Of a stretch of DNA of 64,000 nucleotides, positions 57,001 to 64,000 are shown one piece after another; positions within the stretch are counted from its first letter, which is position 1, and each line of letters starts with the position of its first letter. Source of the stretch: Fibrobacterales bacterium (GTDB taxonomy: Bacteria > Fibrobacterota > Fibrobacteria > Fibrobacterales > JAOPTW01). The stretch spans positions 29,041-93,040 of the forward strand of contig JAOPTW010000001.1 in the NCBI GenBank assembly GCA_051532035.1. The letters are read 5' to 3'. The position numbers were made by a program.

Positions 57001-60000
57001 GCTATGGACACTCTCAGAGTGTTGAGCGGTGGAGTGGGTATGTGCCAAAATAAAACTAAAGGTTAGTTGCGCAACAGAGTCGGTACTATAGCCCGGTATG
57101 TTTGTTACGAGTATACCGTTCTTTTTGGCAAAGTCAATATCAATTACGTTATATCCAGTAGCGAGGACACCGATATATTTAAGATCAGGAAGCTGCATAA
57201 GTATCTCTTTATGCAATACTACTTTGTTGGTAAGAATAACTTCGGCGCCCTGAGCACGGTCGACTATTTCGCTGAGCTCTGTTCTATCATACAGAGTTAC
57301 GTCACCAATTGCTTGTAATGGCTCCCATGAAAGGTCGCCGGGATTAGTGGTATAGCTATCAAGAATTACAATCTTCACAGTCTATCTGCCTCCAAAAGGT
57401 TGATCGTATCATATATCTTGAGAGTCGCTTTGGAGTTGTTCAGGGTGTAAAAGTGAATACCTTGAACATTGTTATACACGAGATCGCGTACCTGCTCTGT
57501 AGCCCAGTGCATACCAATTTTTTCAACGTCATCATCGTTTTTAGCGTAGAGTACTGCTTTTTGAAGTCGTGCAGGAATACGAGAGCCGAGAGAAAGCTCA
57601 GCCATGCGAACCATGCTACTTTTAGTGGCAATAGGCATAATGCCTGCTATTATAGGGACGGTAATTCCTGTGAGCTCACAGCGTTCTTTAAAATCATAAA
57701 AGTCACGGTTGTCAAAAAAGAGTTGTGTCACAATGTAGTCAGCACCGGCATCTACTTTTGCTTTGAGGTACTCCATTTCTTTGAGTCTATTAGGAGTGTC
57801 GGGGTGTCCTTCAGGAAAGCCGGCGACACCAATACCCATGTCGGGATGGTGTTCTTTTATAAATGCAACAAGGTCACTCGCGTACTCAAATCCATCTTCG
57901 GCTGCAATATCACGAAGGGTTCCGTCGTGAGGAAGGTCACCTTTGAGGGCAAGGATATTTTTAACGCCATTTTTAGCATAATCGTCGAGCACCACTTTCA
58001 TCTCGGCACGGGTCGAATTGACGCATGTGAGATGGGATACTACGGTAAGGTCGGTTTTTTCCATGATTTCTAGAATAATATCATGAGTTTTCTCTCGGGT
58101 TGAGCCACCCGCACCATAGGTAACACTTACATAGGCGGGCTCAAGAGGCATGAGATCACTAATAGTGGTAAAGAGTTTGCTCCATCCCTTGTCTGTTTTG
58201 GGAGGGAAAAATTCAAAGCTAAAAGTGATTTTGTGCTCTTTAAAGATATCGGCTATATGCATGGGTAAGTCCAGGTGGGGGAGTGTTCAATAATATAACT
58301 ATTTTGGCCTAAATTTGGTCTTAAACGGCAGTAACAGGCCTATTTACTTCTGTTCTATAGAGGATCATTACCATTTTCGCATGAGCCATTCGAGTCCATA
58401 TTTAAAAGAATATTTTTTCCAGTAGGTTGTAGCAATTAACAGCCCGAAAATAGAAAGAAGCGTTATGGATAGTGCTGTAATTTCTGACGTTGTTCGAAAG
58501 AGGCTTAGAGTGACGAGCAACTCTCTGAAGAGTAAGATGTGTACAAAGAGGAGCGTCAGTGAACAGCGACCAACTGATTCAATGCCAGTAAGAAGGAGTG
58601 ACGGCTTACGGGCAGGGAGTCGCATGAGAAGGCTGAGAGTGATTGTGGCGGTGCCTGTTAAGAAGAGGAGCATTCCGGGGCTGATAGGATAAAAGAGGGG
58701 GGAGGGGCTACAGAGTCTGCTCAGAAAAGGGGGAAGGGGTAGTTCCTTTAGAAAATGGCCTGTGACCATAAGGAGGAGTCCGGTTCCTTGTATAATTAAG
58801 CTTTTTGTTATCACCGGAAAAAAGTGAGCTTCTGGCTGTGGATGAAACGAGGGTTTGAAAAGGGATAGAGAGAGAAGATAGAGTGGGGCCCACGGTAAGA
58901 GAGAGAAGTGACCTTGAATAAATGAAATTCTAAGCAATTGTTCCCAGAGAGGGAATGCCATAGTATAAGGGCTGGTACCCGCCATGTCGGTATTAGATAG
59001 CATATCTGGTATAGAAAAGTGATTGATAAGTGCAGCATAGAGCATAAGCACCGTAAAAGCACAGAAGCCTAAAAAGAGGGAAGAACGTTTTAGTAAAAAG
59101 GGGGTAATGATGAGCATGGCCCCTAAAAAGTGAAGTATGTACCATGACTTCATTGAGAACCAACTGGGGACGAGTAGGTTAAGGATGGAGCCAAAGCCTA
59201 TAAGAAGTAAACCACGTTTAGCAAAGAGTACCCACGATGGTTGTTTTTGAAAGAGTAATAGGGAGCTATACGCTGTGGCTGTGATAAAAAAAGGAGCCGC
59301 TAACCCACCCAATATTGAGAGAATAACAATTGCTGGGTAGTCGTTGAACGTCTCTCCAGTTTGTATACCACGCCAGAGCCACGACCCTAGGTGCTGTTCT
59401 ACCATGAGAATCAGTGCGAAGCCTCTAAAAAGATCTAAGCCATGAATGCGTGATGTTTGGTTCATAGTGATAAGATAGATACTTTTTAATTGAGAATGCA
59501 AAATAAAAAAGCCCCACTCTACACTGTAGAATGGGGCTTATGTCACTGATTCTTTTTATTTAGATACCGAAGTCATCCGCATGGATCATCTTCTTCTCTA
59601 CACCAAGATTATCGAGCATGGCGTGGACTGAATCAGACATGATTGGAGGTCCACACATATAGTATTCAATGTCTTCTGGGGTTTCATGATCTTTCAGGTG
59701 TAAGTCGTGTACGACATTGTGAATAAAGCCAACAGCTCCTTCCCAATTATCACCTTCTTCTGGTTCAGAGAGTGCAATGTGGAACTTGAAGTTGTCGTAC
59801 TGCTCTTCGATTGCTCTAAAGAGAGGTTCGTAAAAGATCTCTTTTTTAGAACGGGCACCGTAGTAGTACGTTACTTTACGGCCAGTTTTAAGGGTATTAA
59901 AGAGGTGGAAAATGTGTGATCTGAGTGGAGCCATACCAGCACCACCACCGATGTATACCATTTCGTTTTGAGTATCTTGAATATAGAACTCACCATAGGG

Positions 60001-63000: not shown

Positions 63001-64000
63001 CATTACCCAGTGGTAATAGAAAGGAAGATGCATAAGGCTATTTGATTCTGCCCCTGCAAATGCGTTAAAAATAAGAGCAACAATAGTTGAACCAACTAAG
63101 GTACCCAGCATAATACGGCCACTTCCAAGGCGGGTAAATACGAGGACCAACGCTCCAAGGAGACAGAGGAGTGCAGATGTTTCGCCTGCGGAACCGGGGA
63201 CAAATCCCAGAAAGAGATTACTGAATGTAAAGCCTGCACTATTGAGTGAATCAATAACTGCAGCACCAGTACCTTGTGAAGCAACAAGAAGCGGAGTCGC
63301 TCCTGAGTAGGCATCAACAAGTTTATCTGTTGTAGTATTTATCGCTCTCCATACACCATCACCAGAGATAAATGTTGGATATGAGAAGAAGATAAATGCA
63401 CGTGCGGTGAGTGCTGGATTAAGGAAGTTCATTCCTGAACCACCAAATACTTCTTTACCAATGATTACACCAAATGCGGTTCCTACAGCAACAACCCAAA
63501 GTGGTGTTGTAGGAGCAAGGGTAAGTGGTAAAAGCATTCCTGTTACAAAGAATCCTTCATTTACTTCGTGTCCACGAATCTGACCAAAAATAACCTCTAT
63601 CACCGATCCGGTCATATACGTTACAATGACGATAGGGAGCATAGCCCACATTCCGTGAATGAATGAATTAATGATTGTTGGCTCAATACCAGTAAATACC
63701 GTAAGGAGATCGTTACTGGCAGTCAGACTGCTCAGTTTTTGAAACCCTACATTATAAAAGGCAAAGAGTAGACAAGGAATGATGGTCATAATAACGAGTG
63801 ACATCATGCGCTTTGAATCAAGTGCATCTCTTACATGTACCCTTGAACTCGTCGTCTCATTAGGAGTTCTAATAAGAGTATCAAGTGCGTCGGCCATAGC
63901 ATGCATTTTTTTGAATGGACCTTCTTTCGTAAGGTTCATCAATATGTCAGCTGGTTTTTCTAATAAGTCTTTTGTAATTCTCATGTTATCCCTCCACCTG

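Follow-up and report, generated by a model that had tools for sequence, protein, structure and literature searches.

In our preferred reading, which we would put at roughly 0.7, the end of the window (the whole 64,000-nucleotide stretch of DNA analysed here) carries nqrBCDEF of a six-gene nqrABCDEF Na+-NQR, and NQR and complex I are both old in this group, families f1 and f2 having lost complex I. The window (G000:C1:29041-93040) comes from an early-branching marine relative of Fibrobacter (family f1), whose genome (G000, 130 contigs) is 91.75% complete; window base 64000 is the end of the 93-kb contig C1.

Comparisons within the order Fibrobacterales cover 157 genomes, including G000, in families f1, f2, f3 and f4 (Fibrobacteraceae, 151 genomes), and phylum-wide counts cover 296 Fibrobacterota genomes, with f5 as the sister family of the order. 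The species tree, a quick search on two proteins (RpoB and RpoC), reads (f5,(f1,(f2,(f3,f4)))), with G148 branching first within f4 and a support of 80 at the f3+f4 node. A search of the literature available found no paper on NQR in Fibrobacterota.

The nqr operon at the contig end

The operon occupies window positions 59560-63984 on the minus strand (C1 88600-93024), where five tightly packed ORFs bear out the survey's finding of nqrB to nqrF. Each of subunits B to F scores above its NCBIfam equivalog cut-off, as listed here from the contig end inwards:

63985..64000, minus strand: nqrA-nqrB spacer, the final 16 nt of C1, holding the nqrB ribosome-binding site
62755..63984, minus strand: nqrB, 409 aa; NF003756 519.7 bits, cut-off 414
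62022..62768, minus strand: nqrC, 248 aa, GTG start; TIGR01938 190.6, cut-off 144; FMN_bind domain
61412..62029, minus strand: nqrD, 205 aa; NF006777 269.7, cut-off 235
60807..61412, minus strand: nqrE, 201 aa; TIGR01940 294.4, cut-off 247.55
59560..60801, minus strand: nqrF, 413 aa; TIGR01941 582.9, cut-off 295
59509..59539, minus strand: intrinsic terminator, 14-bp stem with 7 G-C pairs and a T run, 20 nt past the nqrF stop

Between the contig end and the start of nqrB are 16 nt that include a GGAGGG ribosome-binding site, and nqrC overlaps nqrB by 14 nt. The start of nqrD, mechanically called at 62086, was refined to the ATG at 62029, which is preceded by a GGAGG site. The nqrF product combines a membrane anchor, a 2Fe-2S ferredoxin domain (Fer2), FAD_binding_6 and the NADH-binding NAD_binding_1, and the operon is closed after nqrF by a strong terminator.

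The placement of nqrA at C55:2-1063 was also correct, with the N-terminal part alone assembled: the gene lies on the minus strand and runs off the start of C55, leaving 354 aa to be read, with NQRA_N, NQRA_2nd and SLBB domains. Being cut by the contig end, with its last ~95 residues unassembled, this fragment reaches a score of 336 where the cut-off is 450; a search of the rest of the G000 assembly did not find the missing tail. We place the ~95 codons of this tail, and with them the nqrA-nqrB junction, in the assembly gap between C55 and C1. The genes nqrABCDEF are contiguous, with nqrA and nqrB adjacent, in 10 related genomes (G002, G148, G006, G003 and six more Fibrobacterota), and the arrangement of G000 is found again in G001. 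In a marine-metagenome run, which may be that of the source sample, the stretch is represented by short contigs of two strain variants, and one 560-nt contig reaches 403 nt past the window end.

Judged by its sequence, the operon is a genuine Na+-NQR and a predicted Na+ pump, and the enzyme itself is ordinary. Rnf (RnfABCDGE), the paralogous ferredoxin:NAD+ pump in which RnfD, G, E and A are homologous to NqrB, C, D and E, was rejected as an identification of this operon. The Rnf models all fall below their cut-offs (rnfD 185/207, rnfG 52/102, rnfE 165/213, rnfA 213/229) while the NQR models exceed theirs, and the operon has NqrF without RnfB or RnfC. A complete rseC-rnfBCDGEA cluster is present on contig C8.

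The cofactor-binding and acidic residues point the same way. With positions counted on V. cholerae PDB chains, NqrB keeps the SGAT threonine T236, and NqrC keeps its FMN-carrying threonine (T225 on chain 7xk3_C) in an AGAT context, where V. cholerae has SGAT; these two threonines are the sites of covalent FMN attachment in Na+-NQR. All four cysteines of the intramembrane iron centre are kept (NqrD C29 and C112; NqrE C26 and C120), as are the acidic residues that have been linked to Na+ in the V. cholerae enzyme (NqrB E144 and D397, NqrD D133, NqrE E95). In NqrF, the 2Fe-2S cysteines and the FAD motif are likewise shared (C70, C76, C79, C111, R210-x-Y212-S213 and GGGAGMAP being conserved).

The Na+-NQR of V. 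cholerae (PDB 7xk3, 8a1t and others) also has six subunits and a like gene order, and its chains give full-length alignments to NqrB (E 3e-104), NqrD (4e-63), NqrE (9e-66) and NqrF (3e-144). Identity to V. cholerae NqrB is about 50%, and position 141 is S here. Unlike in V. cholerae, nqrF is followed by the terminator rather than by apbE and nqrM; an ApbE flavin transferase is encoded on another contig (G000:C36). NqrM is needed for NQR maturation in Vibrio, according to passages of PMC12174285, and a search for it matched 0/5 genomes but equally 0/14 control genomes.

Descent of NQR and complex I

The survey had searched two Nuo families in the DNA and reported complex I missing from G000. 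This can now be put more broadly: tblastn with the full set of 11 Nuo subunits from G016 and from G006 as queries found none of them in G000. For NuoA, BC, D, H, J, K, L, M and N no alignment was better than E 0.75, and the sole match to any Nuo query was the generic 4Fe-4S ferredoxin domain of NuoI (E 2e-4). Complex I is indeed common elsewhere in the order, with NuoH found in 150/157 genomes; the seven without a NuoH match are G000, G001, G002, G005, G022, G104 and G145, among which G001, G002 and G005 are the three nearest genomes named by the survey.

Beyond the order, complex I has a coherent history. A type-1 operon with fused NuoBC is common to f3, f4, G244 (of f5), f6 and f7, and NuoH was found in 44/45 genomes of f6-f8. 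The type-1 Nuo tree, ((f3,f4),(f5,(f6,f7))) with supports of 97-100, splits f3+f4 from f5+f6+f7, as expected under vertical descent. The 11-subunit complex I with fused NuoBC is thus best read as vertically inherited within the class, which argues that it was lost in f1 and f2. These same observations weigh against a reversed history, in which the order's ancestor had NQR only and the ancestor of f3+f4 gained complex I, which later displaced NQR in Fibrobacteraceae. The NuoH pattern does track the species-tree branching (missing from f1, f2 and 4/6 f5 genomes, present in f3+f4), as that history would predict, but we consider it unlikely.

NQR is more thinly scattered. The gene nqrF occurs in 15/296 Fibrobacterota genomes, namely in 2/2 of f1 (counting G000), 2/2 of f2, 2/2 of f3, 1/151 of f4, 6/6 of f5, 1/7 of f17 and 1/1 of f19, so that the 6 genomes that lie in the order but outside Fibrobacteraceae are all among the order's 7/157 positives. 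The seven Fibrobacterales rows form a single clade in the NQR tree (SH-aLRT 100), and both enzymes are carried by f3 and G148. NQR therefore looks, from these trees and counts, old in this part of the Fibrobacterota, which argues that G000 lost complex I without an enzyme-for-enzyme swap. It is quite improbable that the f1 lineage acquired NQR in the course of a recent turn from fermentation towards respiration and that NQR replaced complex I, as the survey's finding had it. Counts within the order alone (NuoH 150/157, nqrF 7/157, COX1 6/157) would favour such an event. However, f1 is the first branch of the order, NQR is present in all three early-branching families and throughout f5, and the order's NQRs being one clade argues against acquisition as a replacement; COX1, moreover, is found in 44/51 genomes of f5-f8. 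Two counts come out slightly above the lower bounds of 4/156 given by the survey (nqrF in 6/156 and COX1 in 5/156 other genomes of the order).

The depth of the NQR tree calls for some care. In the concatenated tree, the 13 Fibrobacterota rows cluster with the 3 from Bacteroidota, separately from five other phyla (SH-aLRT 100), in a sampling with just those 3 Bacteroidota rows and with no Chlorobiota, Marinimicrobia or Chlamydiota. The deep branching that relates Bacteroidota, f5+f19, f17 and the Fibrobacterales has supports of 88-91, and an early NQR transfer between Fibrobacterota and Bacteroidota is conceivable. Within the order, the NQR tree roots on G148 first and not on f1, unlike the species tree; imposing the species-tree arrangement on it lowers lnL by 19.3 (p-AU 0.042; 22 rows, LG+G4), with the tested group chosen after the tree was seen. 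Because of this conflict, the operon of G148, or another, may have moved sideways.

Incomplete bins are a very improbable source of the missing complex I. G000 is a fragmented assembly whose contig ends cut the atp, cco and nqr operons, yet 0/11 Nuo subunits were detected, not even as fragments. The same absence is seen in four genomes (G000, G001, G002 and G005) that are 78-94% complete and belong to two families, and chance loss in all four would, by rough reckoning, have a probability of ~1e-4 if independent. In addition, the closed one-contig genome G241 is in the same state, with NQR and COX1 present and NuoH not found.

Finally, contamination of the bin by the nqr contig can be set aside, and so can its recent arrival by transfer from Bacteroidota or Gammaproteobacteria: these groups are where NQR occurs most often, and the best 80 matches outside the phylum are mostly Pseudomonadota, but the best of these outside matches reach 46-55% identity for NqrB and 29-33% for NqrA, against 55-60% and 37-43% to other Fibrobacterales, while C1 is 93 kb long with a G+C of 0.36-0.45 over its final 14 kb (genome 0.40), and G001 has the same nqr arrangement.

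Respiratory context and proposed electron path

The respiratory inventory of the survey was found in full: besides Rnf, G000 carries caa3 and cbb3 haem-copper oxidases, NapA, NrfAH, the octahaem enzyme and flagellins. Menaquinone from the futalosine pathway is its most likely quinone, given two MqnA/D-type genes in G000; the classical menaquinone route was dropped, with menA found in 0/9 genomes. The acceptor would thus differ from the ubiquinone of V. cholerae. Menaquinone is also the likely acceptor in Bacteroidota, whose NQR is the nearest outside group in the concatenated tree; for example, PMC10739449 describes the Prevotella bryantii enzyme as an NADH:menaquinone NQR working with fumarate reductase. 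Bacteroides thetaiotaomicron, a control genome here, matched both NuoH and nqrF, and the NQR of G000, in contrast to that of Bacteroidota, stands without complex I and alongside caa3, cbb3, Nap and NrfAH.

By analogy with the V. cholerae enzyme and from the residues conserved here, NADH would reduce the FAD of NqrF, and electrons would pass through the NqrF 2Fe-2S centre to the four-Cys iron centre between NqrD and NqrE, then to the FMNs of NqrC and NqrB (presumably attached covalently by ApbE), to riboflavin and to quinone, with Na+ being pumped out during the transfer. No other coupled NADH dehydrogenase was found in G000, and NQR would feed menaquinol to caa3, cbb3, Nap, NrfAH and the multihaem systems.

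The description of this respiration as sodium-based is borne out in part only. In G001 and four relatives, the F-type c subunit has E then G, not S/T, and so lacks a Na+ signature; these proteins stand in for that of G000, where no c subunit was found because C27 ends within the atp operon. The ATP synthase is thus probably H+-coupled, in which case the Na+ gradient would support transport and homeostasis and might also drive the flagellar motor.

Probable ancestral respiration in the Fibrobacterota

Cultured Fibrobacterota (Fibrobacter, Chitinivibrio and Chitinispirillum) are described as non-respiring fermenters in passages of PMC4814513, and a rhizosphere preprint (10.1101/611863) reports expression of a cbb3 oxidase encoded in a soil Fibrobacterota genome. 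The proposed shift from fermentation towards respiration appears to run the wrong way. COX1 occurs in 6/157 genomes of the order (2/151 in f4) but in 44/51 in the rest of the class (f5 5/6, f6 1/1, f7 32/32, f8 6/12), and for this reason respiration looks like the older state, with the fermentative Fibrobacteraceae being derived. The order's ancestor would probably have had both NQR and complex I, as f3, G148 and G244 still do; complex I would then have been lost in f1 and f2, and NQR and the oxidases in crown Fibrobacteraceae.

A like pattern has been described in another phylum. According to passages of PMC6143742, Marinimicrobia, placed near Fibrobacteres, have an ancestral, vertically inherited NQR and an 11-subunit NDH without NADH-oxidising subunits, and a canonical NDH replaced NQR in mesopelagic clades. 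Lineage-specific retention of NQR or NDH is thus common to both accounts, whereas here complex I is lost in early-branching marine lineages and NQR in the gut and rumen family.

It is tempting to go further, although at somewhat less than even odds, and to suggest that ancestral Fibrobacteria were motile and respiring and had haem-copper oxidases alongside NQR and an 11-subunit complex I, that NQR is deeper than the Chlorobi/Bacteroidetes ancestor, and that the fermentative Fibrobacter is a reduced, derived form. A 2014 study reportedly proposed the Chlorobi/Bacteroidetes ancestor for NQR, with Fibrobacter said to go unmentioned in its text. Were this extension true, the marine f1 lineage would be among the living lineages that best show the ancestral state, complex I excepted.

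Taken together, full respiratory chains are present in the order's early branches and in most other families of the class, unlike in the cultured fermenters, and NQR would be a long-standing part of those chains, with NQR and complex I sorted by differential loss. The phylum would then have a different ancestral state, and the Fibrobacterota would join the lineages relevant to the origin of NQR.

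The nqr operon and the contig break

The window covers positions 29041-93040 of contig C1, which ends at window base 64000. At this end lie five head-to-tail minus-strand ORFs, overlapping by 1-14 nt or separated by gaps of 5 nt, each of which exceeds the cut-off of an NCBIfam equivalog model for the sodium-pumping NADH:quinone reductase (NQR). The list includes related features on contigs C55 and C36.

62755-63984, minus: nqrB (519.7, cut-off 414)
62022-62768, minus: nqrC (190.6, cut-off 144)
61412-62029, minus: nqrD (269.7, cut-off 235)
60807-61412, minus: nqrE (294.4, cut-off 247.55)
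59560-60801, minus: nqrF (582.9, cut-off 295)
59539-59509, minus: terminator, 14-bp stem and T run, 20 nt past the nqrF stop
C55:2-1063, minus: partial nqrA, 354 residues, with NQRA_N, NQRA_2nd and SLBB domains
C36:89947-90699: gene for an ApbE flavin transferase

The nqrD start is the ATG at 62029, which has a GGAGG site upstream (the mechanical ORF start is 62086). Pfam domains of the five products are consistent with NQR, and models for the paralogous pump Rnf all remained under their own cut-offs. Given the terminator, the operon ends after nqrF; genes for an HGSNAT/DUF418 membrane protein, MTHFR and a 2-hydroxyacid dehydrogenase follow outside it. Between 58000 and 59500, over the HGSNAT_cat/DUF418 gene, GC skew climbs to 0.28-0.29, well above adjacent values.

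Each of the five subunits can be aligned over its whole length with V. cholerae chains from solved NQR structures (E-values: B, 3e-104; C, 1e-26; D, 4e-63; E, 9e-66; F, 3e-144). Counted on those chains, the following residues, which we take to have their generally accepted roles, are conserved.

NqrB: T236 in SGAT, G140, E144 and D397, with S at position 141
NqrC: T225, here in an AGAT context
NqrD: C29, C112 and D133
NqrE: C26, C120 and E95
NqrF: C70, C76, C79, C111, R210-x-Y212-S213 and the GGGAGMAP nucleotide loop

A search for NqrM was silent in all controls as well as in this genome. The quinone is probably menaquinone, judging from two genes of the MqnA/MqnD type, which belong to the futalosine route; classical menA was found in 0/9 genomes searched. 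On sequence grounds, the operon encodes a genuine Na+-NQR, appears intact and is typical of its family.

The genome's single NQRA_N match (C55:776-1051, minus) belongs to the partial nqrA, whose product spans model positions 2-349 of 449 and, aligned with NqrA of two other Fibrobacterales (G002 and G148), is short of ~95 C-terminal residues; a search for this tail elsewhere in the assembly found none. C1 ends 16 nt upstream of nqrB, and the assembly of G001, from the same genus, stops at the identical base. The stretch occurs in one public run only, which carries the label marine metagenome and may be the source sample, where it is represented by short contigs of two strain variants (depths ~240 and 510-550). 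One variant has 0 differences from the window and the other 17-25 per 220-315 nt piece, and such microdiversity would explain the contig break. One 560-nt contig of the run reaches across the window end, with 157 nt inside the window and 403 nt beyond it. It can be strongly inferred that nqrA on C55 joins nqrB across the gap, because nqrA lies immediately 5' of nqrB on the same contig in G002, G148, G006 and G003, with adjacency on one contig also in G244, G241, G236, G290, G243 and G240.

Complex I and the remaining respiratory chain

The survey's search of the DNA for complex I had covered two Nuo families. NuoH (PF00146) is present in 150/157 genomes of the order and was not found in this genome, G001 (94% complete), G002 (92%) or G005 (78%), nor in G022 (85%), G104 (72%) and G145 (82%). 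The whole nuo operons of G016 (family f4, Fibrobacteraceae; NuoA, fused NuoBC, D, H, I, J, K, L, M, N, without NuoEFG) and G006 (f3), with Pfam-confirmed subunits, were used as tblastn queries; save for the generic 4Fe-4S domain of NuoI, the best match in this genome had E=0.75. For this genome the absence was thereby widened to all eleven subunits. Absence of complex I extends over four genomes of two families, and as these are bins, it falls short of proof. A closed, single-contig genome (G241, 98% complete) likewise has NQR and COX1 without NuoH.

The rest of the chain is spread over several contigs (scores against cut-offs in brackets).

C4: caa3-type oxidase cluster (SCO1, CoxA, CoxC, CoxD, CoxB-cytochrome c fusion, CtaB)
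C49 and C5: cbb3 oxidase split over two contig ends (FixS and CcoN N-terminus; CcoO, Q, P, FixG, H)
C22: NapA (965 vs 904)
C62: NrfH-NrfA (149/134 and 646/595)
C66: octahaem tetrathionate-reductase-family cytochrome (554/375)
C8: complete rseC-rnfBCDGEA cluster

The octahaem gene adjoins a 7-haem/cytochrome b fusion and sulphur-transport genes, NirBD is also encoded, and among five genomes tested, rnfC was above cut-off only in f1, the family of this genome and G001. NapA lies with a 4-haem cytochrome at a contig start (C22:116-2982), and another contig start (C49:3-3252) encodes two 4-haem cytochromes, a DsrO/QrcC-like FeS protein and a DsrP/NrfD-like membrane protein; joined, the two may form one unusual nap-type quinol-oxidising module. 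A further cluster (C36:49596-64205) encodes multihaem cytochromes with 11, 9, 8, 6, 6, 4 and 4 CxxCH motifs, including an 11-haem/cytochrome b561 fusion and a NapC/NirT-like protein, beside hemA, a sigma-54 two-component pair and a cytochrome c assembly gene; it may serve electron transfer outside the cell or in the periplasm.

The operon for ATP synthase is cut at the end of C27. The Na+-binding signature of the c subunit is E-S/T. In G001, G002, G005, G006 and G241, the F-type c subunits have E then G (IEGVALFG or close variants; IEGVSLFG in G241), which argues for an H+-coupled enzyme. G006 additionally possesses a V-type ATPase (C126:51627-57061) with a duplicated 186-aa c subunit and TQG motif, which may be Na+-coupled. 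The flagellin repertoire is unusually large: Flagellin_N matches number 12 here, 12 in G001, 7 in G002 and 5 in G005, and the same search found none in G003, G006, G004, G007 and G008. Nine of the genes stand in tandem on one strand (C15:273084-282501), an array shared with G001.

Distribution and phylogeny

Across 296 Fibrobacterota genomes, nqrF exceeds its cut-off in 15, and NuoH and COX1 (both E<=1e-30) occur in 232 and 66, respectively.

Genomes per family with each marker (f7 tallies include G253, flagged unpublished, on which alone no claim depends)
f1: nqrF 2/2 (this genome included); NuoH 0; COX1 2/2
f2: nqrF 2/2; NuoH 0; COX1 2/2
f3: nqrF 2/2; NuoH 2/2; COX1 0/2
f4: nqrF 1/151 (G148); NuoH 148/151; COX1 2/151 (G023, G148)
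f5 (same class, another order): nqrF 6/6; NuoH 2/6; COX1 5/6
f6: NuoH 1/1; COX1 1/1
f7: NuoH 31/32; COX1 32/32
f8: NuoH 12/12; COX1 6/12
f9-f12, f18: NuoH 0
f13: NuoH 20/46; COX1 7/46
f14: NuoH 1/8
f15: NuoH 8/8; COX1 7/8
f16: NuoH 2/4
f17: nqrF 1/7; NuoH 0; COX1 2/7
f19: nqrF 1/1; NuoH 0
f20: NuoH 4/4
f21: NuoH 1/1

Five of the 15 NQR genomes also have NuoH (G003, G006, G148, G242, G244) and ten, including G241, do not. From these counts, heme-copper oxidases are rare in the order and the rule in the other families of the class (44/51).

NqrB of the window is 46-55% identical to proteins from many outside phyla, and every NQR subunit is more similar to other Fibrobacterales than to outside proteins (NqrA, 37-43% vs 29-33%; NqrC, 38-48% vs 30-35%). 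In a concatenated NqrA-F tree of 80 rows (seven Fibrobacterales and 73 of 80 outside loci, seven with <5 subunits being left out), the Fibrobacterales formed one group (SH-aLRT 100) adjoining three Bacteroidota (100), apart from the 63 Pseudomonadota as well as Planctomycetota, Acidobacteriota, Myxococcota and Hydrogenedentota. A 43-row mixture-model tree, with six further Fibrobacterota operons and 30 outside rows chosen by hand from the 73 so as to reduce the share of Pseudomonadota, united 13 Fibrobacterota and three Bacteroidota (100); the order and f5 were each clades (100), and the deeper branching is tentative (88). A 22-row LG+G4 tree agrees.

A quick mixture-model search on RpoB+RpoC (13 rows, 2618 columns), with f17+f19 as the root, gave the species tree (f5,(f1,(f2,(f3,(G148, other f4))))), with supports of 100, 100, 96, 80 and 100. 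Unlike in this tree, G148 branches first within the order in the NQR tree. Constraining f2+f3+G148 to stay together in line with the species tree, a grouping named post hoc once the NQR tree was seen, cost 19.3 lnL with a borderline p-AU of 0.042, and the G148 operon may not be strictly vertical. RpoB itself is 1410-1460 aa in f4 including G148, 1471 aa in G003 (f3) and ~1255-1280 aa in f1, f2 and f5; in f4, G148 included, the match to the model is interrupted around position 550, and this large insertion may mark an f3+f4 clade.

Two nuo operon types exist in the phylum. Type 1, with fused NuoBC and D adjoining H, occurs in G016 (f4), G006 (f3), G244 (f5), G245 (f6) and G262 and G274 (f7); type 2, in which B and C are separate genes and D and H lie ~4 kb apart, is found in f7, f13 and f15, and f4 has it as a second copy. 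Most Fibrobacteraceae have two NuoH genes (374-aa type 1, ~453-aa type 2) and hence two complex I operons, only type 1 being common to f3 and f5; in their type 2, the interval from D to H is long enough for NuoEFG. The type-1 Nuo tree was ((f3,f4) 97, (G244,(f6,f7,f7) 99) 99), with 100 for the whole group, as vertical descent within the class would predict.

History of NQR in the Fibrobacteria

Under the simplest history, the ancestor of the order would have had NQR, type-1 complex I and oxidases, and the combination of NQR with type-1 complex I would persist in f3, G148 and G244. Complex I would then have been lost in f1 and f2, separately according to the species tree, and oxidases in f3; in crown Fibrobacteraceae NQR would have disappeared, and in nearly all of them the oxidases too. 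A swap in the opposite direction, with complex I gained by f3+f4, is unlikely, as the type-1 Nuo tree, though built without outgroups from other phyla, speaks against it. The facts of the survey's finding stand. Its wording on history, that complex I was "replaced" in a "shift" towards respiration, does not, since NQR and type-1 complex I occur together in f3, G148 and G244, oxidases are the rule elsewhere in the class, and the f1 lineage mostly kept the old state.

The closest precedent is in Marinimicrobia, where NQR has been interpreted as an ancestral trait passed down vertically, with canonical NDH having largely taken its place in mesopelagic clades, alongside an NDH that lacks the NADH-oxidising subunits (PMC6143742). 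A 2014 study placed the birth of NQR in the Chlorobi/Bacteroidetes ancestor, and "Fibrobacter" does not occur in its text (PMC4014512). Cultured Fibrobacteres have been described as lacking respiration (PMC4814513), and expression of a cbb3 oxidase has been reported for a Fibrobacterota genome from soil (10.1101/611863). A literature search outside subscription journals found no paper on NQR in Fibrobacterota.

The operon is of moderate interest, and that for evolution: it is a record of early Fibrobacterales branches that respire, bear flagellins and have NQR only, and it suggests that NQR is at least as old as the base of the class Fibrobacteria, perhaps dating back to the split from Bacteroidota.
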